Source: Escherichia phage CJY920
Sequence record: PQ349265.1
Direction: 5' to 3' (one strand)
Length of the DNA: 64,000 nt
Below are positions 37,064-53,393 of this stretch, one piece after another. The notes beneath the pieces are model-generated. The model ran no database searches, had not been told where the DNA came from, and worked only from the letters and a program-made list of their open reading frames with translations. Numbering within the stretch: position 1 is the stretch's first letter; the number at the start of each line of letters is the position of its first letter. Position numbers and translations under genes: made by a program.

Positions 37064-40000
37064 CTATTTTAACCTGTGTTGGATTTTCAGGGTCTCTTGG
37101 ATTTCCTATATTATCTTTTAGACGTTTATTAACTAAATCCCTAAATTGTGCAAATGTTGTTCCAGATGCATCAAATAGAGGACTCATTAATTTACGTCGT
37201 TCAGAAGGCAATTGACCTTGAAATATTGAATTATTATTTTCAGCATTATAGTCATCAGGAAGAGGATATTCTACGCCAGCCATTGGGCCAGGTTCATAAA
37301 TTGCTTCGCCTGTTACTGAATCATGCTCAATTTCACCGGTTGGAGTCAATTTAGCTACTCTATCAGCGTATTCAGTAGGCAATCCAGAATCCCATTTATA
37401 GTTTTTGTATTTATTAATTATAGTCTCTGTATGTTTAAGAGTTAAACCAACATTAATAAACATTGTTAAAAGAGTAATTGCTATAAATCCAAATCCTACT
37501 GGATGAACAAAACGAATAACGTCAGATTTCCAGCGGGAAGAAGGTAAATTGGATTTAATTTTCATTACATAATATGATCGACTTCTATTAATATAGTCTA
37601 TATTATTTTGAAGCAAATCTTTTCCTTTAACCCCACGAATAATTTCGCCTTCAAAACTAGGGAGTCTTTCTGCTTTAACTTCTTGACCGGCAATCAATCT
37701 TCCCAAAAGATTATGAATAGTTACGGTCCACTGCAATTTACCATTAGAATAGCTTCTTTCTATATAAGTAACATTACATCTTCCTGTAGCTGTATAAATC
37801 GTTTGTCCTACTAAGTCTTCAGTCAAAGAATCAGATTGAATGATTATATCATATTCAGTACCAGCCCCAGATTCAATTTCAATTTCAACTTCTTCATTAT
37901 AAAGAACTTTAAAAAGAAATTTGTATGATGCTTCAATTCCTTTAGTAGAATAAAAATCATAGCTGCGTGATTCGAAAAATCTTGCAACAGCATCGCGTTT
38001 GTCAGCATTCAAATAAATGTTTCTTTTATATATCTCTGACCACAAATATTCCCATGCATGCTCTTCTCGTGGATATTTGTTACGAATTAAATTTCGTAAA
38101 TTGTTATACTGAGTTCCATATCCATCAGAAAGATACTGAATATATGCTTCGCAAAATGCCTCAAAATTCGAATCCTGTAACAAATAAGAATCAGGCATCA
38201 TTGTGCCAATCAATGGTCTTAAATCAGGGTCAGCTAATCCACGCTCTTCTTCAGGCGACCAAGGAGTTTCATGCTCTTGGTTTTGTAAAAATGCTTTTAA
38301 AAATACTTCAGTTGGCTTCCAAATAATTTCTACAGCGTCTCTAACACGATAGTTAAAATCATAATAAGAAATTATTTCACCGGAGGCTTTATAGAAAAGC
38401 ATCCCAGATGCATATTTTTTAAATCCAGTGAATTTAACATTTGGCATTACTATAGTACAATCGCCATCATCCCAGTATTCATGAACTAATCTATCTGGTG
38501 ATGTTTCAGGAATGTTTTCTATAACTTTAGTATATTTTAAATCAGCATAAACTACTACAACCCTATCAGAGTTGTTTATCCAACAACGTGTGTTAGATTT
38601 TTTAGACCAGTTAAAGAATGGTTCAGCGTAGTATTTCATCGGCTGAGGAGTAAAAGTTTCCCAATCAGACTTTTCATCTGCTATAAATGCCATCATATGA
38701 TAATGCTTATCAGCTAACCATTCACGAGGAAATTCATATTTAACAGCACCGATTAACTGATATTTTGCTGCAGTTTCAGGGTCATTAACAACATTATCAC
38801 TTAAAAATTTAAAATTACTCGATGATAGAGAAACTAATTTACCATCAGTTGACATATTCGCATATCCAGGTTGAATACGTCTTCTTTCTTCTTCAGTGTT
38901 GCCAAAAACTCTTTTCCATGTTTTTGTGTCATGATTTAAAACATATATTCCTTTATCAACAGAATCAATTATTTTTGATGTTCTAGGATTAGCATTTAAT
39001 GTTTCAACTTCACCAATAATAAGAGCAAAAACTTTATCACCGACAGAATCCATTTTATAGCATACTGCTTTAGGATTTCCGGTTATAGTCATAGTATCAG
39101 GTTCAAAAAGCCTTTCCGAATATGTCGGAGATAATGGATCAGAATCTATAGGTGCATTACTCGTTTTTATGTATCTAACTTTGTCTCTGGCGACAACGTA
39201 AATGTAATCATCGGTGCAAGTAATAGCTTCTGCAATGCGATATACATTCGCTGGCAAAGTTGCGTAAGTGGCAAAAATTTCTACATCAAATCCTAAATGT
39301 AATTGGTCGCCAAGTTTAGCGAATGTTATATCCTGAGAACTAAATCTGACATCATCAGCTGACCATCTAACATCAGTAGATTTGCGGCCGTAGAAAATCT
39401 TGTCGTATCCTAGAACGTATGTTGTGTTCGCAGATTGGTAATATACAGTCTTAGATAAAGGATATCCTACACGGTCATTGAAGAGCTTTACAGCTTTCCA
39501 GGTTTGACCTTTATCATTGGATACTTTAACTACAGGTTGATAACGCTCAAAAAGATATAGAATCCCTTCTGATTCCATCAAATAAACTCGATTAATATCC
39601 TTACATACTTGCTGAATAGAACCTTGTATTTCATGATACTCATTTTCACCAATAATAAAATTGCTTATTGATGAAACGTCAACATATGACGGGCTGAATT
39701 GAAATGATTCATTCATCAATGCAGCCATTATAGTGTCATTATTAAAATTAACATAATCAGAATTATTAAGAGTAAATTTTTCCTGAATGAATTTATTAGC
39801 TAATTGCATTTCAATCATGTTTTGAAATGTATAAGCGTTTGTAGCAAAAGTTTCAAACTCTTCGGTATAAATCCAATCAGACTGCTCAAAATCCTGTGCA
39901 GCTGTAGCTACTCTAATAATGTACGATGTCAATGGATTAGCATTATCAAAAAAGAAGCTGTTATTTGCAGTATATCCTAAGTTAATCCATCGGTATTGAT

Positions 40001-40154
40001 TGCTCGGGAGATTTTCCCCCGAGTTTGTTTTTGTCTCAGCGATTTCTACAAAATAGTAGAAATTAGCACCAACGTCATCCCAGCGTACTTGCACCTGATT
40101 TGCGGATAACTTGGAAATTCTGAGACTAGTGACTGAAGGTGCTTTTACTGTCAT
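37056..40154 (-). CDS. 7: baseplate wedge initiator gp7
   Basis: 1032-aa ORF; T4 length and synteny. Confidence 0.9.
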   Translation of the reverse strand: MTVKAPSVTSLRISKLSANQVQVRWDDVGANFYYFVEIAETKTNSGENLPSNQYRWINLGYTANNSFFFDNANPLTSYIIRVATAAQDFEQSDWIYTEEFETFATNAYTFQNMIEMQLANKFIQEKFTLNNSDYVNFNNDTIMAALMNESFQFSPSYVDVSSISNFIIGENEYHEIQGSIQQVCKDINRVYLMESEGILYLFERYQPVVKVSNDKGQTWKAVKLFNDRVGYPLSKTVYYQSANTTYVLGYDKIFYGRKSTDVRWSADDVRFSSQDITFAKLGDQLHLGFDVEIFATYATLPANVYRIAEAITCTDDYIYVVARDKVRYIKTSNAPIDSDPLSPTYSERLFEPDTMTITGNPKAVCYKMDSVGDKVFALIIGEVETLNANPRTSKIIDSVDKGIYVLNHDTKTWKRVFGNTEEERRRIQPGYANMSTDGKLVSLSSSNFKFLSDNVVNDPETAAKYQLIGAVKYEFPREWLADKHYHMMAFIADEKSDWETFTPQPMKYYAEPFFNWSKKSNTRCWINNSDRVVVVYADLKYTKVIENIPETSPDRLVHEYWDDGDCTIVMPNVKFTGFKKYASGMLFYKASGEIISYYDFNYRVRDAVEIIWKPTEVFLKAFLQNQEHETPWSPEEERGLADPDLRPLIGTMMPDSYLLQDSNFEAFCEAYIQYLSDGYGTQYNNLRNLIRNKYPREEHAWEYLWSEIYKRNIYLNADKRDAVARFFESRSYDFYSTKGIEASYKFLFKVLYNEEVEIEIESGAGTEYDIIIQSDSLTEDLVGQTIYTATGRCNVTYIERSYSNGKLQWTVTIHNLLGRLIAGQEVKAERLPSFEGEIIRGVKGKDLLQNNIDYINRSRSYYVMKIKSNLPSSRWKSDVIRFVHPVGFGFIAITLLTMFINVGLTLKHTETIINKYKNYKWDSGLPTEYADRVAKLTPTGEIEHDSVTGEAIYEPGPMAGVEYPLPDDYNAENNNSIFQGQLPSERRKLMSPLFDASGTTFAQFRDLVNKRLKDNIGNPRDPENPTQVKIDE

Positions 40155-42133
40155 TGTGATATAGGCTCCAAATCGATAGTTAAGTATTGTGGACGTAAAT
40201 CATTTTCAAATACAATCAGTGAACCATCGCGTGTGAAAATAACATCGTCTATTGGATCAGAATATAGCTCAATAGTCTGAACCTCAAATTTATCGGATGT
40301 TAAATTAATTTTAGCGATATTCCAATAAATCATGTCAGCTGGATAATTTATTTCACCGATAACGTAGTATTTGTCGCGTCCATCGGAACTTGCTAATTTA
40401 TTAAAATCATTGCCTGTATATGGCTGAATGTTTTCATTTTCTGTAACATCACCCGAAGCAAATGGACCAATAATAACTTTGCCAATTCCTTTAGAATCTC
40501 TGTCTGTTGATACTATACGAACGTCGTATAGTATATCTTCTTCTAAACCAGTATCAGGATTTACAACCTTTCGTCCAGAATTAAATGAAAACGTATTAGA
40601 TTCCATAGAACGGTCTTTTATTTGATTATTGTATTTAATACCTGCTTCAGGCGTTTTATAGAAGTTTTGTACTTCACGAACAATTTGAATTGTCGCTGAT
40701 GAGCCAATGATAGAATGATCTGCATCATCTACATATGTCAACATCTTAGATTTAGCGAAAGATGAGTTAAAAATTTCTACATCTTCGGTATAATAACGAT
40801 CAATTTTATCAATTATTTGACCTTCGAGCCACTGTTCGGATTCTTGCAGCTTATTTAAAGCATATGTGACTTTTAAATTAGTCTTAATAAAAAGGTAATT
40901 AGGAGAAATAATTGATGGTGTAATAGGAGCTAAATTATAGTCTTTGAGATAATTTTTAATATCTTCACGCTGTACAGTAGTTAAATACAGACCTGATTTA
41001 GGTTTAGCAGCAATAAATGCATAACCGGGTTTTGTAGAATCAGTGAAAGTTTGAACTGCTTGAATAATAGAACCAAATCTCTCTGAAACGAATGTATCAT
41101 AATCAGTCGCAGTTACGCAGCGTTGTTGGGTTTCGCGTTTAATAGTACCCAATTCGCGAATACGCTCAATATCTTCTGGGTCACCGCCGCCATCTGCTCC
41201 AACGAAATCTGGGTCGTCGTTTGGATTTTCATTAATATTGATGACAGTTATATTTGTTAATGTATCTGCGTATGAAAATCCGACTGCGCCATTCGCATCT
41301 GCACCGTTAGTACTGATGTACTCAATAACAATCGTAGAGTTCTGGGTAGGTTTAAGACCTCCAATGTAATTAGCGGTCAATGCTCCTTCTGCCGCATTAA
41401 CAGAAATCTCACCTTCACCAAAATAAAATTCAGTATTTCCATCAATAGTTTCACGCATGTAGTAAATTGTTGATGTAGAACCAGCATGAACCATTGACTT
41501 TCTTGTCCAGTTAATCCATTCTGCTCCATCAACGTACAGTTTAACTTGGTTTCTATCTATATTTTTGTCATAAATGATAATCGGTGTTAATTTATCATAA
41601 ATGATTTCAGTTCTTACTATACGTCCCTGGGCTAATTTTAAACGCGGAAAATATTGGTTATTTTTATCACGAATAGCAATAACATCTTCGGTAGAAACGA
41701 AGTTATATGGATTAACAGAAGTATCCTTTGCATATGCTAAAAAGCGAGTTCCGCGAGGAATAGTAATGTAATTCCTATTCAATGCGTCGGTGCATGTTAA
41801 CATAATTTCGGTCTGCGCAGCGGATTTTGAAGTAGGTAAATATCCGTTATCTTGCGCAGCTTGAACAACTGAACTTCGTAAGTTAGCAGTACGCATAAAG
41901 CTTTCATACAAGGCAGCATTACCAAACTGCTGAATGTACAACGTATTATAAGCTAAAAGGTCACACAGAACGTTTAATCTTGAACCTTCAAAATCATAAT
42001 CCAAAAATTCATTTTGGCCATTAAGCCATTCAATGAGGTTTTGTTTTATTTCAGCAAATGTACCCCCGACGAATATCTCGGGAATAGCATTTGCTGTTCG
42101 TGTTAATTGATAATTTACAGGGGTATTTGCCAT
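40151..42133 (-). CDS. 6: baseplate wedge subunit gp6
   Basis: 660-aa ORF; T4 length and synteny. Confidence 0.9.
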   Translation of the reverse strand: MANTPVNYQLTRTANAIPEIFVGGTFAEIKQNLIEWLNGQNEFLDYDFEGSRLNVLCDLLAYNTLYIQQFGNAALYESFMRTANLRSSVVQAAQDNGYLPTSKSAAQTEIMLTCTDALNRNYITIPRGTRFLAYAKDTSVNPYNFVSTEDVIAIRDKNNQYFPRLKLAQGRIVRTEIIYDKLTPIIIYDKNIDRNQVKLYVDGAEWINWTRKSMVHAGSTSTIYYMRETIDGNTEFYFGEGEISVNAAEGALTANYIGGLKPTQNSTIVIEYISTNGADANGAVGFSYADTLTNITVININENPNDDPDFVGADGGGDPEDIERIRELGTIKRETQQRCVTATDYDTFVSERFGSIIQAVQTFTDSTKPGYAFIAAKPKSGLYLTTVQREDIKNYLKDYNLAPITPSIISPNYLFIKTNLKVTYALNKLQESEQWLEGQIIDKIDRYYTEDVEIFNSSFAKSKMLTYVDDADHSIIGSSATIQIVREVQNFYKTPEAGIKYNNQIKDRSMESNTFSFNSGRKVVNPDTGLEEDILYDVRIVSTDRDSKGIGKVIIGPFASGDVTENENIQPYTGNDFNKLASSDGRDKYYVIGEINYPADMIYWNIAKINLTSDKFEVQTIELYSDPIDDVIFTRDGSLIVFENDLRPQYLTIDLEPISQ

Positions 42134-42141
42134 TTTAAATC

Positions 42142-42435
42142 CTATTTAATGAATACTTTAGATGATGCCTGAGCCACAGTATCACCGCATGATATTGGAT
42201 CAGCCATTTGAACAGCTTTCTTTCCATTGACATATACCTTAGAAGTTCTAGGTTGTGTCACTCCGCCATGTGTTTCATATGGCTTTTTAATTTCTGTATG
42301 TTCTGTAATTGGATCACCTGCTACGAGAACAGCAATTCCTCCAGTGAATACTTTACTTTGTGTAGCATTCACAACTGTTGGAGGCCATACTTCATGGCCA
42401 GCAGTAACACACTTATCATAACTTAATCCTGACAT
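42142..42435 (-). CDS. 5.4: PAAR-repeat spike-tip protein gp5.4
   Basis: 97-aa ORF; Gly/His-rich PAAR-like sequence; T4 length. Confidence 0.8.
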
Positions 42436-43013
42436 TTATAATACCCCGCTTTAACTCGCCCCTTTAAGGTACTATAATTTATATTAAGAGCTTTAGCTGC
42501 GATTTTAATACTTTTATATAAAACGCCGTTGATAATAATAGATTTAGCATTAGGGGCTATTTTGCCATACATTGGGTTATTGGCGCCGCACATCTTCGGA
42601 GTTTTACCTCTAGGCCCTCTAGGCCCTCTTTTTCTAGACGATTTAATGCTAATTTTCAATCTAGTTTCACGCGAATGAGATTTACCGTAAAATCCATTTT
42701 TAACACCCGCTGTGCTATGTTTTGGGAAGCCACCGATACCACCTAGTTTCATATTATAAGTTTTCTCAGATTTAACAAATTCCTCTGTGACTATTTCTGC
42801 CTCTGCGTCATACATAGCTTTTTCAGATTCAAAGAATTTTATAATATGCTTATAAAAATTATCTATGCCATATTTTTTAATGGCATTTTTAATGGCAACG
42901 CCAGAACCCATATACCCATCATCCAAATTTGAAGTTTTATGGACACCTACATAAATTTTTCCCGTTGTTTTATTAGTTATTGAATACAAATAAAAATATT
43001 TATGGCCTCTCAT
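42423..43013 (-). CDS. GIY-YIG homing endonuclease (Seg-like)
   Basis: 196-aa ORF; [20 protein letters not shown]...GYMGSG core; NUMOD3-like NGFYGKSHS and GANNPMYGK; C-terminal HTH-like tail. Confidence 0.8.
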
Positions 43014-43518
43014 ACACGTAGCTTCTCAATTTATTAGCCCAACGACTCCAATTTCCAACTATAGTTTTTGTATAATTTTTAACAAGAGTTTTTCTTATTG
43101 GAGCTGGAGGATTCGTTGGTTCAGTAGTATCAGAAGATGACCTAGAATTACTGCCAGAACCTCCAGATTCACTTTGTTCTTGGTAGTCATATATTAATGT
43201 TACTTCGTAAGTGAATGTCTTCTGGAGGTTTTGAGGAGCTTTCCATAGATATAACTGAGTATTAGAATCAGTTGGAAGGTCTTCCCATGAAGCAGCAGTT
43301 TTAAATTCATTATCTAAACGATATTTCAACGCGTCATTTCCAAATCCAAACACAGATTCATACGTTCCATATAAACGATTTTCTTCTACTAAAACCCCAG
43401 GAGTTTCTTCGTAACTAGTTATATTTATAGATACTAACGTTTCACCTGTTTCTAATTGAGCGGTAAAGGTGACGTCGATAGAAGAACCTTCCATGGATTC
43501 TCCTAAATCAGCGCTCAT
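43000..43518 (-). CDS. hypothetical protein (gene 5.1 position)
   Basis: Track ORF starts at TTG 43536; ATG 43518 gives 172 aa; Ser/Gly-rich linker. Confidence 0.5.
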   Translation of the reverse strand: MSADLGESMEGSSIDVTFTAQLETGETLVSINITSYEETPGVLVEENRLYGTYESVFGFGNDALKYRLDNEFKTAASWEDLPTDSNTQLYLWKAPQNLQKTFTYEVTLIYDYQEQSESGGSGSNSRSSSDTTEPTNPPAPIRKTLVKNYTKTIVGNWSRWANKLRSYVYERP

Positions 43519-43528
43519 TGGAAGTATA

Positions 43529-44395
43529 TTAGCCAATTGTTGAATTCTCTAATGATGTAAATTTATAATCACATTTTTTCAACGCTTTTAAAATTGCGTT
43601 ATAACTTACATCCGGGAGGTCGTGTTCAATTGCTTTTTCTCTAAACCATTTGTATTTCTGTGGATGTGGTTTTCCCAAATCCTCCCAAAGTTTTTTGACT
43701 TTTTCTATACTAATCCAAGGTTCAACTGATCTTAGTTTTTTATTTCTAGCATCTAATCTCGATTTTCTTATCAAAGGATCATTCCATGATTGTTTCGTTC
43801 CTTCTATTTTTCCTGGATGATTGATTAATTTGTTTCTATATTCATCGGATTTCCATAAAGATTTAACGGTATTAGAAATACGAATTTTTAATGTTGGATC
43901 ATTTTCAAAAGCAGTTTTCATCGCATTACTCATTTTCTTTCGATATTCTGGTGATGCGCATCTTTCTTTGTTTATTTTAGATATTTTCTCTGAAAATTCT
44001 TTAGTTGACGTTGATTTAGCTAATGCCTTCAATTGAGCTTTCCTATATTCAGGATTAGACCACATTCTCTTCAAATCTTCGGATGAAAAACCATCACCGC
44101 CGGATTTTATATTGGTACATAGAATGTCAGATGATTTATATTTCGAAATCCAATACCTTTCTCTTAAATTAAGAATTTCATAAGTAGAAACAAATTCAAT
44201 TATTTCAAAATCTATTTTATAACCAGGTTTATTGCGTATCTTTTTAATATAATCACCGGAACCTATATACTTGTCATTTTCTAAATCAAAATATCTAGAT
44301 TCATGTTTACCAATATAAACACGTACTAATCCTTTTGGATTAGTAACGGTTGTTTTATATATGTATCTAAATTGAACAGTGTTAGATTTTTTCAT
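43529..44395 (-). CDS. GIY-YIG-type homing endonuclease with repeated W-x-x-P/D-E-Y-R modules
   Basis: 288-aa ORF; FRYIYKTT...VRVYIGKHE core; three repeats WSNPEYRKAQ / SPEYRKKM / KSDEYRNKL also seen in segB. Confidence 0.7.
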   Translation of the reverse strand: MKKSNTVQFRYIYKTTVTNPKGLVRVYIGKHESRYFDLENDKYIGSGDYIKKIRNKPGYKIDFEIIEFVSTYEILNLRERYWISKYKSSDILCTNIKSGGDGFSSEDLKRMWSNPEYRKAQLKALAKSTSTKEFSEKISKINKERCASPEYRKKMSNAMKTAFENDPTLKIRISNTVKSLWKSDEYRNKLINHPGKIEGTKQSWNDPLIRKSRLDARNKKLRSVEPWISIEKVKKLWEDLGKPHPQKYKWFREKAIEHDLPDVSYNAILKALKKCDYKFTSLENSTIG

Positions 44396-44413
44396 AATTC
44401 ACCTCTGAATTAT

Positions 44414-46144
44414 TTATAAACCTACGTCTATACGGCTACCATCAATTGTGTATTGACCAGATGAAATAGAACTCATAGATGCCATTTTTTCTGTCCAATC
44501 GCCACCAACGTCCCAGTCAACTGTCCCAGCAACTTTCCAAGAAAGATTTCCATTTACTGTATTAGTCTGATTTCCTTCAACTAAAGTGGTAGCATCCCCT
44601 TTAACTGTAATGTCAGCATTACCTTCAACTACAATAGTAACATTACCTTTGACTAGGATAGTTCCATTACCTTCAACCGTCTTAGTTTCATCGCCACGTA
44701 CAAATATTGTATTGCTTCCATCTATTTGGTGGAGACGATTATCCATGTTGTAATAAATTTCTGATCCACCGACGTTAGTCTTTTTATCGCCAGCTACCAA
44801 AAAATTACCATCAGCATTTGTTATATCATACAAATTATCAACAGTTTTTCTTGTTCTTCTTCCTGACGGTGATACTTCTTCATAAGTTCCAGTTGGATGA
44901 ACTAATCTATATCGTTCTTGCCCAGGGGTATCATCAAATTCTTGGATATGTCCGCTTTCAGTTTCCATTGTATGCACATAAGGATATTCACCTTTATATG
45001 AAGAAACTGGTTCTTTGAATAAAATTCTCGAGTCATTTGGAATAGGAGGGTCAGCAGGGTCAGAAGATTTAGCTACAGTAGCAGCCATTGCTGACAAAGA
45101 CCTAGCTGGTGTTTTAACTTCAATACCGTATGATTCCAAATTACCCGTAAGAATAATCATGGTAACACGGGATGCACGGCCTTTTGTTTGTTGATACCAC
45201 AATGAATCACGACCAGCTTTATATGCTTTTTCCCAATCTCCGGCTAACATAGCTGTTAACATTGTGCTAAATTTAGCTACACCGCCAACACCCATCTGAA
45301 ATGCCATATTTTCTAATGCCATTTGACGAGAACGATTAACTGCTTGCCAAACTGGGCCAACTTTAGAATGTGATTTAATGTCACGTTGCATATCAGCCAA
45401 ATCGCGTTCAAATAAAGTTACCGCTTCTTCCATTGTAATAGAACCTGGATTTCCGGTAATTTCACGACCAACTTGTTTTGATAAAACTTTATTAATTTGG
45501 TTCATATCACGAACTGGCTGCTTCATGATAAGATGACCAATACCAATTGTCGGATATCCTTCTGTATCCCAATAAACTTTTAGTCTTAATCCTTCATCAC
45601 GGCGAAGCATTTCAGCCATTGACATATTTGGATTATCATCAGTTGGAATTTCTGATAGCGGTCTATCATCGGGATTTATCGCAGTGTCTAGATTGCTATC
45701 TTGGATAATATTAGAAGACGAATCATATCCTACTTCTCCGCCTTGGTTTAATACGTTAGTATCATTTCCTAAACGTCTAGGATACTGTCCGGTTGGGTCA
45801 GAAAATCCTTCAAGTCTATTCGGTTTTTCGCGAACTATTCCACCATACGTGCCAAGGACAATTCCGTTAGTTTTCCATTTGTCTAAAAAATGACCATAAA
45901 CTCTAGTTCCTTCTACCGGTCCAGTAACAGAACCTCCAATTCCAGACATTGCTGCAGAAGTTATAGGTTGAATAACTGACATCCATGGTAATTTTTCAGT
46001 TGGAATACCCATTACATCACCTTGTGCTCTTTGAGGTGGATGCAAACCAACCACACGAACACGAACACGACCTAATTTTAATGGGTCCATTCTATCTTCA
46101 ACAACACCAACAAACCAGTTGAGGTTATTACTTATCATTTCCAT
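44414..46144 (-). CDS. 5: baseplate hub subunit and tail lysozyme gp5
   Basis: 576-aa ORF; central lysozyme domain followed by a beta-helix VxGxxxxx repeat region; T4 synteny. Confidence 0.9.
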   Translation of the reverse strand: MEMISNNLNWFVGVVEDRMDPLKLGRVRVRVVGLHPPQRAQGDVMGIPTEKLPWMSVIQPITSAAMSGIGGSVTGPVEGTRVYGHFLDKWKTNGIVLGTYGGIVREKPNRLEGFSDPTGQYPRRLGNDTNVLNQGGEVGYDSSSNIIQDSNLDTAINPDDRPLSEIPTDDNPNMSMAEMLRRDEGLRLKVYWDTEGYPTIGIGHLIMKQPVRDMNQINKVLSKQVGREITGNPGSITMEEAVTLFERDLADMQRDIKSHSKVGPVWQAVNRSRQMALENMAFQMGVGGVAKFSTMLTAMLAGDWEKAYKAGRDSLWYQQTKGRASRVTMIILTGNLESYGIEVKTPARSLSAMAATVAKSSDPADPPIPNDSRILFKEPVSSYKGEYPYVHTMETESGHIQEFDDTPGQERYRLVHPTGTYEEVSPSGRRTRKTVDNLYDITNADGNFLVAGDKKTNVGGSEIYYNMDNRLHQIDGSNTIFVRGDETKTVEGNGTILVKGNVTIVVEGNADITVKGDATTLVEGNQTNTVNGNLSWKVAGTVDWDVGGDWTEKMASMSSISSGQYTIDGSRIDVGL

Positions 46145-46718
46145 AAGATTTCTCCATTATACGTATAAGGTCGTTCATAAATGAATTGATGTCTGATTTT
46201 GCTATTATTTTTATTTGACGAAGTTTTTCATTTTCAAGAACAGCCGATTCATACGTATCGACCGCAGCAAGTGCTCCTTCGTATTGAGGATATTTTCTAG
46301 CTTTATCGCCTTTATCATACCAAACATACGGATTATCATCGTATGATATTAAATTATAAAATTTTTCACCGTTCTCATTCACATGATACACTATTTGGTC
46401 TCCACCTATGTTTTTGTATTTTTGTATAGATGCTTGATAAGCAGCTTCTTGTGAAGTAATCCATCCATAATACGGATCATAATTATCATTACACATCAAT
46501 AAAACCCAATACAACTGCGGATTTCCATATATAGCATTTGCTAATTCTTCCGGGCGTGGTGAACCTTTAATATAATAAGTACGTAAGCGATATCCCGCAA
46601 GAGCGCGTTTGAAATAGTCTTTATAGTTTCTAAAAATATCTGTCATAGGAATAGTCGGCGCGTTTTTATTCACCGTTTTGGCCGCATATTCAATCGGATC
46701 AAAAAATGTAAAGAGCAT
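46128..46718 (-). CDS. 53: baseplate wedge subunit gp53
   Basis: 196-aa ORF; T4 length and synteny. Confidence 0.85.
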   Translation of the reverse strand: MLFTFFDPIEYAAKTVNKNAPTIPMTDIFRNYKDYFKRALAGYRLRTYYIKGSPRPEELANAIYGNPQLYWVLLMCNDNYDPYYGWITSQEAAYQASIQKYKNIGGDQIVYHVNENGEKFYNLISYDDNPYVWYDKGDKARKYPQYEGALAAVDTYESAVLENEKLRQIKIIAKSDINSFMNDLIRIMEKSYGNDK

Positions 46719-46731
46719 GGGCCCTCCTGTT

Positions 46732-46754
46732 TATAAATATATTATCTATTTATA
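46732..46754. promoter_or_regulatory. divergent late promoters for gene 4 (plus) and gene 53 (minus)
   Basis: tataaata at 46732-46739 (plus, 27 nt before the gene 4 ATG) and tatttata at 46747-46754 (minus-strand TATAAATA, 29 nt before the gene 53 ATG). Confidence 0.5.
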
Positions 46755-46765
46755 AGGAGAATCCA

Positions 46766-47218
46766 ATGGCATATTCTGGAAAATGGGTTCCTAAAAATAT
46801 ATCAAAATATAGAGGTGACCCTAAAAAAATTACGTATAGATCAAATTGGGAAAAATTCTTTTTTGAATGGTTAGATAAAAATCCAGAAATTATTGCATGG
46901 GGTAGTGAAACAGCAGTAATTCCTTATTTTTGTAATGCAGAAGGGAAAAAACGTAGATACTTCATGGATATTTGGATGAAAGATTCTTCTGGACAAGAAT
47001 TTTTTATTGAAATAAAGCCTAAAAAAGAAACACAACCACCAATTAAACCAGCACATCTAACAACTGCAGCGAAGAAAAGATTTATGAATGAAATTTATAC
47101 ATATTCAGTTAATACTGACAAATGGAAAGCAGCTCAAGCTTTAGCTGAAAAGCGTGGAATAAAATTTAGAATTTTAACAGAAGATGGATTACGAGCTCTT
47201 GGCTTTAAGGGGGCATAA
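46766..47218 (+). CDS. 4: head completion protein gp4
   Basis: 150-aa ORF; T4 length and synteny. Confidence 0.85.
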
Positions 47219-52204: not shown

Positions 52205-52277
52205 TGGGAATTAGCCAAGTTGGTAAGGCATAGCACTTTGACTGCTAGATGCAAAGGTTCAAGTCCTTTATTCCCAG
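52205..52277 (+). tRNA. tRNA-Gln (anticodon TTG)
   Basis: Acceptor tgggaat/attccca; anticodon stem tagca/tgcta with loop ctTTGac; T-loop ttcaagt. Confidence 0.8.
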
Positions 52278-52278
52278 C

Positions 52279-52362
52279 GCGAGAATGGCCAAATTGGTAA
52301 AGGCACAGCACTTAAAATGCTGCGGAATGATTTCCTTGTGGGTTCGAGTCCCACTTCTCGTA
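52279..52362 (+). tRNA. tRNA-Leu (anticodon TAA), long variable arm
   Basis: Acceptor gcgagaa/ttctcgt; anticodon stem cagca/tgctg with loop ctTAAaa; T-loop ttcgagt; CCA encoded at 52363-52365. Confidence 0.8.
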
Positions 52363-52370
52363 CCAAATTT

Positions 52371-52442
<72 letters not shown>

Positions 52443-52454
52443 AAATTTAATTTA

Positions 52455-52527
52455 CTCCGTGTAGCTCAGTAGGTAGAGCACCTCACTTGTAATGAGGACG
52501 TCGGCGGTTCGATTCCGTCAATCAGCA
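52455..52527 (+). tRNA. tRNA-Thr-like (anticodon TGT) with non-complementary 5-prime acceptor strand; possible hybrid or pseudogene
   Basis: Canonical D, anticodon (cctca/ctTGTaa/tgagg) and T arms, but 5-prime ctccgtg cannot pair with 3-prime aatcagc. Confidence 0.5.
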
Positions 52528-52533
52528 TATCAA

Positions 52534-52607
52534 GGCCCTGTAGCTCAACGGTTAGCAGCAGTCCCCTCATAAGGGAAAGGTTACCAGTTCGAATCTGGTC
52601 TGGGTCA
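52534..52607 (+). tRNA. tRNA with CAT anticodon (Ile-2/Met type; T4 tRNA-Ile position)
   Basis: Acceptor ggccctg/ctgggtc (one U-U mismatch); anticodon loop ctCATaa; T arm accag-ttcgaat-ctggt; D stem imperfect. Confidence 0.6.
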
Positions 52608-52648
52608 TATTTTGAGAACATAAATACTCTTAGAAATAGGAGATATTT

Positions 52649-53215
52649 ATGTTCCATTACACTTATAAAATAACAAATAAAATTAATAATAAAATTTATA
52701 TTGGTGTGCATTCTACCGAAAATTTAGATGATGGATATATGGGTTCTGGTAAATTATTAAAAAGAGCCCAAGATAAGTATGGTATAGAAAATTTTTCTAA
52801 AGAAATATTAGAGTATTTTGATGATAAAGAATCTATGCTTGAAGCCGAGAAAAATATTGTCACAGAAGAGTTTTTAAATAGATCAGATGTGTATAATTTA
52901 AAACTTGGCGGTGAAGGTGGATGGGACCATTTAAATATTCCTGGGATGCTAAACCGGAAGAAAGATGCTAGCTTAAAAGGAGCTAAATCGTTTAAGTCAC
53001 GGTTTGAAAATGATATTTTACTTCAAGAAAAATATCGTAAAATTGGTTCAAATGTATTTAAACGTTTGTGGTCAACTCCTGAATATAGGGAAAAATTTTT
53101 AAATAATAGCAGATTTTTAAATAAGCATCATACTCCTGAAACTATTAATAAAATGAAAGAAATTCACGCTAAAATAATCACCAGAAAGGAGAAAAGAATT
53201 CCCAATTTGGTATGA
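52649..53215 (+). CDS. segB: GIY-YIG homing endonuclease SegB-like (188 aa; apparent C-terminal continuation in another frame at 53212-53313)
   Basis: YTYKITNKINNKIYIGVH...GYMGSG core; WSTPEYREKF repeat; lies inside the tRNA cluster as T4 segB does. Confidence 0.75.
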   Translation: MFHYTYKITNKINNKIYIGVHSTENLDDGYMGSGKLLKRAQDKYGIENFSKEILEYFDDKESMLEAEKNIVTEEFLNRSDVYNLKLGGEGGWDHLNIPGMLNRKKDASLKGAKSFKSRFENDILLQEKYRKIGSNVFKRLWSTPEYREKFLNNSRFLNKHHTPETINKMKEIHAKIITRKEKRIPNLV

Positions 53216-53313
53216 TGTGGATTCATTCATTAGATGAAAAAGTTTCTAAACGTATTAAGAAAACTGACCCAATTCCAGAAGGATGGTTTAAAGATCGAAA
53301 AATGAAATTTTAA
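53212..53313 (+). CDS. 33-codon ORF, likely frameshifted C-terminal tail of segB
   Basis: ATG overlaps the segB stop (gtATGAtg); MMWIHSLDEKVSKRIKKTDPIPEGWFKDRKMKF; 188+33 = 221 aa, the length I recall for T4 SegB. Confidence 0.35.
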   Translation: MMWIHSLDEKVSKRIKKTDPIPEGWFKDRKMKF

Positions 53314-53316
53314 TTA

Positions 53317-53390
<74 letters not shown>

Positions 53391-53393
53391 CCA

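Follow-up and report, generated by a model that had tools for sequence, protein, structure and literature searches.

The segC gene of phage T4 encodes a free-standing GIY-YIG endonuclease of demonstrated activity and is described as a promoter-less cassette, the open reading frame (ORF) of which overlaps the upstream gene (PMC2988022). Phage T6 is listed with six seg-like genes (PMC2993671). Here, these systems are compared with a 64,000-nucleotide (nt) stretch of Escherichia phage CJY920 (PQ349265.1; hereafter the window), a baseplate segment of Tequatrovirus (T4-like) type with the minus-strand gene order 53, 5, a gene for a 288-amino acid (aa) protein, 5.1, a gene for a 196-aa protein, 5.4, 6 and 7 (Table 1). 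A preliminary description, made from the sequence alone, had two GIY-YIG endonuclease genes bracketing a small ORF between genes 5.4 and 5 of the baseplate operon. The coordinates and lengths it gave for both genes are exact, both are on the minus strand and match PHROG_314 'homing endonuclease' (2e-54 for the 196-aa and 1e-25 for the 288-aa protein), and the small ORF is gene 5.1. The two genes probably represent independent, free-standing GIY-YIG homing endonuclease cassettes that occupy both junctions flanking gene 5.1. Among database sequences, that of Shigella phage SP21535 is nearest to positions 42100-44450 (99.0% identity).

The 196-aa ORF is orthologous to T4 SegC: it occupies the equivalent position, between genes 5.1 and 5.4, in the same orientation, and 187 of its 196 residues (95%) are identical to T4T SegC in an ungapped alignment. 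The protein is composed of an N-terminal GIY-YIG domain (catalytic Glu, E71), followed by a NUMOD3 module and, at the C terminus, a DNA-binding region like that of I-TevI. The Pfam matches to NUMOD3 (32.4 bits) and SegE_GIY-YIG (27 bits) are above cut-off and that to I-TevI_DNA-bd (25.1 bits) is just under its cut-off of 27, while phmmer finds no match to the 196-aa protein among Protein Data Bank (PDB) sequences. Similarly to T4 SegC, the window copy overlaps both neighbours in the same style and has the same domain order. By contrast, T4 SegC has 198 residues, starts with MPMQDHK and overlaps gene 5.1 by 20 nt, while the window copy starts with MRGHK, overlaps 5.1 by 14 nt and is two residues shorter because the 3′ end of 5.1 upstream is T6-type in the window. 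The window copy differs from T4 SegC by nine substitutions, none of which is in a conserved motif.

Compared to the segC-less allele of T6, the segC insert is 564 bp or exactly 188 codons, with boundaries defined by a four-way alignment of the window, T4T, T6 and LH2. The direct repeat ATAAAT is found at both ends of the insert, such that the boundaries are ambiguous by 6 nt. segC starts, with its ATG and first codons, within the 3′ end of gene 5.1 and finishes, with its last codons and stop, within the 5′ end of gene 5.4; both flanks of the insert are also found in phages that have no segC. With its start and stop codons sitting in the ends of its neighbours, segC would presumably be translated by re-initiation after 5.1. 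A palindrome with a 7-bp stem and 8-nt loop resides in the 5′ part of segC (42865-42886, minus strand; codons N-A-I-K-K-Y-G-I) and is flagged on both strands by a terminator scan; it may be a chance occurrence.

The 288-aa gene is also carried by T6, under the annotation 'seg-like hypothetical protein, T6ncORF142' (AXN58183.1); most other listed records name it 'hypothetical protein'. The window and T6 copies are 98.6% identical in DNA, with identical junctions and a dN/dS of 0.05. In T6 the gene stands alone, while in the window it is combined with segC. A profile of 13 database homologs of the 288-aa protein matches the catalytic domain of I-TevI (1LN0, 1.7e-6; 1MK0, 2.8e-5), and aligns E78 with E75, N94 with N90 and Y12/Y26 with Y6/Y17 of I-TevI. 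The GIY and YIG motifs read R-Y-I-Y(12) and V-Y(26)-I-G, and the protein has the beta-beta-alpha-beta-alpha fold of the GIY-YIG superfamily. A profile search of 1.84 billion representatives retrieves 94,750 relatives. Residues Y12, Y26, G28, Y42, G44, S45, G46, E78 and N94 are invariant in all 73 of the best homologs, of which 52 match SegE_GIY-YIG, 31 match GIY-YIG and 27 match NUMOD3 in Pfam.

Three regions are distinguished in the 288-aa protein: the GIY-YIG domain (residues 1-103), a modular region (104-223) and a small helical C-terminal domain (224-288). The modular region is best read as six or seven tandem helical modules of about 17 residues, (S/D)-P-E-Y-R-x-K-x-S, of a divergent NUMOD3 type, since an hhalign comparison of the 288-aa family with SegC (98.8% probability) pairs one PEYR module with the NUMOD3 of SegC and NUMOD3 is matched by homologs. 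The preliminary description had counted three W-x-x-(P/D)-E-Y-R-x-K modules; only the module at W181 fits this pattern strictly, while the shorter (P/D)EYR core does occur three times, at 112, 146 and 181, with a fourth, degenerate copy at 204. The intron-encoded I-TevI shares the catalytic fold, the Tyr/Tyr/Glu/Asn set and the modular nuclease-linker-DNA-binding layout. By contrast, the 288-aa gene is free-standing and its product has no zinc finger, and in place of the segment that holds R27 in I-TevI there is a shorter K-H stretch, after which comes the Seg-specific Y-x-G-S-G. The 288-aa gene is a catalogued member of the Seg family, the product of which is a predicted nuclease.

The 288-aa gene resides on a mobile cassette of 901 bp that replaces 13 nt of the 3′ end of a T4-type gene 5 and provides a substitute end for the invaded gene. 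In T4, gene 5 ends GGA TCG AGG ATT GAC ATT GGC TAA (GSRIDIG, then the stop), while in the window it ends GGT AGC CGT ATA GAC GTA GGT TTA TAA (GSRIDVGL, then the stop), with the Ser and Arg codons drawn from different codon families in the two tails. The former last codons and stop of T4 gene 5 are found instead as the last three codons of the 288-aa ORF (ATT GGC TAA). Unlike segC, the cassette supplies its own expression signals, a T4 late-promoter motif and a Shine-Dalgarno sequence. The late-promoter motif TATAAATA is also seen at the gene 5 stop of T6, LH2, ZQ3 and a metagenome contig of a third lineage (L008), as well as in F2 for seven of its eight bases within the stretch shown; it is absent at this position from T4T, FL18 and NBG1, all of which have no 288-aa gene. 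That the tail was recoded de novo, by synonymous changes that would confer self-immunity, was considered and then downgraded, as the natural gene 5 end of Klebsiella phage Marfa, a distant T4-like phage (GGT AGC AGA ATT GAT GTA GGT TAA), is similar to the substitute tail.

Presence and absence were scored over 50,697 phage records, of which about 520 are related phages. The 288-aa gene is found in 34 records (29 close Tequatrovirus, 3 of the F2/ZQ3 type and 2 CEV1 fragments) and full-length segC in 36, while most of the related records have neither gene and about 94% of relatives have no 288-aa gene. The gene 5/5.1 junction is empty in 485 records (at least 99% identity over 120 nt) and the 5.1/5.4 junction is empty in at least 343. 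T4 has segC only and T6 the 288-aa gene only. The preliminary description had at most one seg gene at this locus in T4 and took the second to be probably an extra insertion. This reading is supported: T4 has exactly one, segC, between 5.1 and 5.4, and the 288-aa gene is absent from T4, present in T6 and carried on the 901-bp block. A nuance is that both genes are sporadic insertions relative to most relatives and neither is a conserved core gene. Four records carry both genes (SP21535, LH2, Manna and T4_ev151). T4_ev151 was considered as a source of experimental evidence for recombination, but the one paper that names it is a study of a Shigella phage cocktail.

Evidence for mobility of the 288-aa gene is found in the Mosigvirus phage ZQ3 and in F2, which have an 83%-identical copy at the same site. 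Gene 5 of these phages is 95-100% identical to that of Mosigvirus phages with no 288-aa gene and only 60-75% identical to gene 5 of T4 and T6. The insert is adjoined by a T4-identical tract of about 47 nt in F2 and about 9 nt in ZQ3, and the right flank of the insert in ZQ3, ATTGGCTAATATACTTCC, is T4-type. These are conversion tracts of unequal length, the signature of acquisition by double-strand-break repair. F2 (NC_054913.1) is labelled 'Tequatrovirus efftwo', yet its locus is 98.7% identical to that of ZQ3 and the last 400 nt of its gene 5 are 95-100% identical to gene-less Mosigvirus NBG1 and FL18; the genus label looks inconsistent for this region. Single-nucleotide polymorphisms (SNPs) that distinguish T4 from T6 have the T6 state in the window across the 288-aa gene and 5.1, as far as the segC boundary, and the T4 state immediately past segC, a pattern that would be expected of a recombinant between T4-type and T6-type parents.

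The same comparisons bear on a different history, in which the T-even ancestor already had the 288-aa gene and most lineages then lost it, its sporadic presence reflecting deletion only. Such loss does occur. Shigella phage ESh36 (L010, 2488-2650) has a scar allele, in which the substitute tail of gene 5 and the final 34 nt of the 288-aa ORF are still present; this corresponds to an 851-bp deletion between the copies of an 8-bp direct repeat. The 64-nt left part of the ESh36 allele is also matched by phages 215Ecol030PP and LF73P3. Every copy of the gene found is also at the same locus, as would be expected of an ancestral gene. However, the scar is limited to three or four records in total, while the 485 empty junctions are seamless and retain an intact T4-type gene 5 tail. 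The 288-aa gene is, moreover, 83% identical between T6-like and Mosigvirus-like phages in which the adjoining gene 5 is only 60-75% identical, and the T4-identical junction tracts of F2 and ZQ3 differ in length. Ancestry followed by loss is, on this evidence, very unlikely.

With two independent homing cassettes as the favoured explanation, each gene would encode a site-specific nuclease that is made late in infection and cuts a co-infecting allele lacking the gene, after which the cassette, with part of the adjoining DNA, would be copied into the cut genome by double-strand-break repair. The 288-aa enzyme would most likely cut at or close to the T4-type gene 5/5.1 junction, which is invariant; this prediction is based on the junction anatomy, the conservation of the empty site and the finding that the T4-type junction is split and altered in carrier genomes, whichever the origin of the substitute tail. 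The double arrangement of the window would be the expected recombinant of a co-infection between a phage with segC and a phage with the 288-aa gene. Since a distance of only about 500 bp separates the cassettes, either cut could lead to co-conversion of both genes and of the intervening 5.1 allele.

Several observations weigh against this explanation. Free-standing endonucleases that have been characterised often cut at a distance of hundreds of bp from their own gene (PMC2988022), and the true site may be elsewhere than the junction. The substitute tail may be a flank imported from a more distant donor, which is at least as likely as an adaptation for immunity; the Marfa-like tail being perhaps such a flank, the proposed target site is weakened. 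While the search for GIY-YIG and NUMOD domains that the preliminary description proposed finds both in the 196-aa protein, the 288-aa protein alone, searched whole and in three pieces, has no Pfam GIY-YIG or NUMOD match and only chance-level matches to GerD and GBP. A phmmer search of PDB sequences with the 288-aa protein finds no match, and only the family profile reached I-TevI. Full-text literature searches find no primary paper that characterises the T6-type 288-aa gene. The two genes show neither linkage nor exclusion, with four double carriers compared to about two expected if independent. The last of these points concerns the catalytic Arg and Glu by which the preliminary description would have judged the two ORFs: the Glu is kept in both, whereas neither protein has an Arg aligned to R27 of I-TevI. 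In the 288-aa protein the aligned positions are K29/H30, in an alignment that adjoins a gap and is uncertain by a few residues, and its family has no conserved Arg column. The only Arg in the catalytic domain of the window SegC is R2. The missing R27-type Arg is a family trait and no sign of inactivity, and Arg is not a valid criterion for Seg-type enzymes, since T4 SegC (residues 3-198) has no Arg before NUMOD3 yet is listed as active (PMC2988022).

The 288-aa coding region includes a perfect stem-loop, located about 50 nt into the gene, that spans a 4-residue insert (GLVR) absent from 70 other homologs and peculiar to this subfamily. Comparison of the window/T6, ZQ3/F2 and L008 sequences shows three of the nine pairs of the stem altered in both arms and none altered in a single arm. 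The altered pairs correspond to three third-codon positions per arm and the changes are synonymous (two U-A pairs become C-G and one becomes A-U). In the hairpin register 97% of cells are paired, compared to 11-47% in slid registers, and the loop is GAAA in T6 and L008. Compensatory conservation of the hairpin is suggestive, with only four distinct sequences compared. Of the free-standing endonuclease genes of T4, segF and mobE carry internal terminators (PMC2988022) and similarly have a stem-loop in the 5′ coding region. By contrast, the stem-loops of segF and mobE are terminators, while a terminator function of the 288-aa hairpin is doubtful: a scan flags it as an intrinsic terminator, but the U-tract downstream is weak in the window and ZQ3 and F2 have none, and this reading was set aside.

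A conserved hairpin, together with a late promoter of its own, is also what might be found if the 288-aa protein were domesticated and no longer homing, kept for the benefit of the phage as a DNA-binding regulator, a nuclease in inter-phage competition or a driver of recombination and amplification. T6 SegB was recently reported to drive recombination and amplification of nearby genes, a beneficial role that provides a precedent (PMC13096335). The 288-aa gene is under strong purifying selection over its full length (dN/dS 0.08-0.10 at dS 0.9-2.2, across three lineages), and values of about 0.1 are unusual for an element that is purely selfish and at a late stage of its life cycle; the absence of the canonical Arg likewise fits a protein that no longer homes. 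Set against this, the catalytic Tyr, Glu and Asn are all kept, about 94% of relatives manage without the gene, and conversion tracts combined with presence/absence polymorphism at one precise site are a signature of homing. A domesticated, non-homing protein is considered quite unlikely.

A third seg gene of the window is the segB-like gene at 52649-53316 (plus strand), the ORF of which has 26% identity with the 288-aa protein (E 1e-9). T4 SegB, of the tRNA cluster, shares with the 288-aa protein a Seg-type catalytic domain (Y-x-G-S-G motif) and one W-S-T-P-E-Y-R-E-K module. By contrast, the 288-aa protein has six or seven tandem modules, another C-terminal domain, another locus and probably another target. 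The preliminary description had its three modules also present in segB; a module is indeed found there, but as a single WSTPEYREK in each of T4 SegB and the window segB-like ORF. Compared to T4 segB (221 aa), the segB-like gene is frameshifted by a 1-nt deletion in an A-run (CGCCAAAAATAAT to CGCTAAAATAAT), with the frame ending at 188 aa, and the T4-type C-terminus (GEKNSQFGMMWIHSLDEKVSKRIKK) runs on in the +1 frame up to tRNA-Arg. The frameshift may reflect either a pseudogene or a homopolymer sequencing error. In the surrounding region (52205-53393, plus strand), ARAGORN identifies five tRNA genes (Gln, Leu, Gly, one with a CAT anticodon, and Arg) compared to eight annotated in T4T; those for Pro, Ser and Thr are not called.

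The frameshifted segB-like ORF demonstrates that seg genes do decay in this genome, and one of the two genes flanking 5.1 could by analogy be an inactive remnant, leaving a single functional endonuclease at the locus. Both ORFs are, however, full length with their catalytic residues, the differences of the segC copy from T4 SegC (9 of 196 residues) spare the conserved motifs, and the near identity of the 288-aa gene to the T6 copy is accompanied by the low dN/dS given above. A decaying remnant is highly improbable.

A further, joint reading extends the role of the 288-aa cassette beyond that of a passive selfish gene, to include a rewritten gp5 tip, an added promoter, a hairpin control element and a drive block of two endonucleases. 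The cassette changes the C-terminal tip of the gp5 spike from IG to VGL, each followed by the stop; this tip is the surface capped by the PAAR protein gp5.4. The cassette also puts a late-promoter motif ahead of genes 5.1, 5.4, 6 and 7. The hairpin could be a new type of self-limiting control, such as a transcript attenuator, a processing site or a binding site of the enzyme itself, and the cassette and segC could jointly form the drive block, with the 5.1 allele carried along. As a whole, this reading is regarded as unlikely.

Table 1. Genes and sequence elements at the gene 5 to gene 5.4 locus of the window.
Feature	Position	Strand	Basis or remark
Gene 5 (baseplate hub and tail lysozyme)	44414-46144	-	Host gene; 3′ end invaded by the cassette
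Mobile cassette, 901 bp	43538-44438		Replaces 13 nt (ATCGAGGATTGAC) of the 3′ end of T4-type gene 5
Substitute gene 5 tail	44414-44438	-	Alignment with the T4-type allele
T4 late-promoter motif TATAAATA	44411-44418	-	Overlaps the new stop of gene 5; 15 nt separate its end from the 288-aa ATG downstream
Shine-Dalgarno GAGGT	44401-44405	-	5-nt spacer to the 288-aa ATG
288-aa Seg-like GIY-YIG gene (= T6ncORF142)	43529-44395	-	ORF, PHROG_314, homologue profiles
Stem-loop, 9-bp perfect stem and 4-nt loop	44324-44345	-	Codons 17-23 (V-T-N-P-K-G-L-V) of the 288-aa gene
8-bp direct repeat TTATAAAT, left copy	44412-44419		851-bp deletion between the copies gives the scar allele
8-bp direct repeat TTATAAAT, right copy	43561-43568	-	As above
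Gene 5.1	43000-43494	-	164 aa; open frame reaches 43536; bracketed by both endonuclease genes
segC ortholog, 196 aa	42423-43013	-	ORF, identity to T4T SegC, Pfam, PHROG_314
segC insert, 564 bp	42440-43003		Compared with the segC-less T6 allele
Gene 5.4 (PAAR spike tip)	42142-42435	-	Pfam PAAR_motif 4.1e-10; downstream neighbour of segC

Gene 5.1, which is located between the two cassettes, is a conserved T4-like gene of unassigned function (PHROG_1168, 6.6e-73). The frame can be opened at a TTG to give 178 aa, at the first ATG to give 172 aa, the length stated in the preliminary description, or at the ATG at 43494 to give 164 aa. The last is most likely the true start, because it is preceded by an AGGAG Shine-Dalgarno sequence and is the annotated start in T4T, T6 and LH2, where the gene is 495 nt. 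Overlaps are observed at only two junctions, between 5.1 and segC (14 nt) and between segC and 5.4 (13 nt). Of the reported overlap among all three ORFs, that of 5.1 with segC stands, while the 288-aa stop is separated by a gap of 34 nt from the likely start of 5.1. A second exact copy of the late-promoter motif TATAAATA resides within gene 5.1 (43422-43429, minus strand), as in T4T, T6 and LH2, and is absent from Mosigvirus-like loci; it could drive 5.4, 6 and 7, plus segC where present. Through genes 53, 5, 6 and 7 (window 39600-46950), SNPs of T4 versus T6 type switch in short runs, a fine mosaic typical of T-even recombination.

The segC gene is already known and, while its pairing with the 288-aa gene is rare, both genes, taken singly, are unremarkable examples of a familiar kind. 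The cassette anatomy, conversion tracts, scar and hairpin provide useful details that leave the understanding of such elements unchanged and would not surprise a specialist. For annotation, the 288-aa 'hypothetical protein' can be renamed a Seg-like GIY-YIG homing endonuclease. The locus displays stages of the endonuclease life cycle: the empty site, the site occupied in two lineages, a deletion scar and rare double recombinants. The predicted target of the T6-type enzyme is the T4-type gene 5/5.1 junction, and this enzyme could help to explain marker exclusion around gene 5 in T-even crosses.

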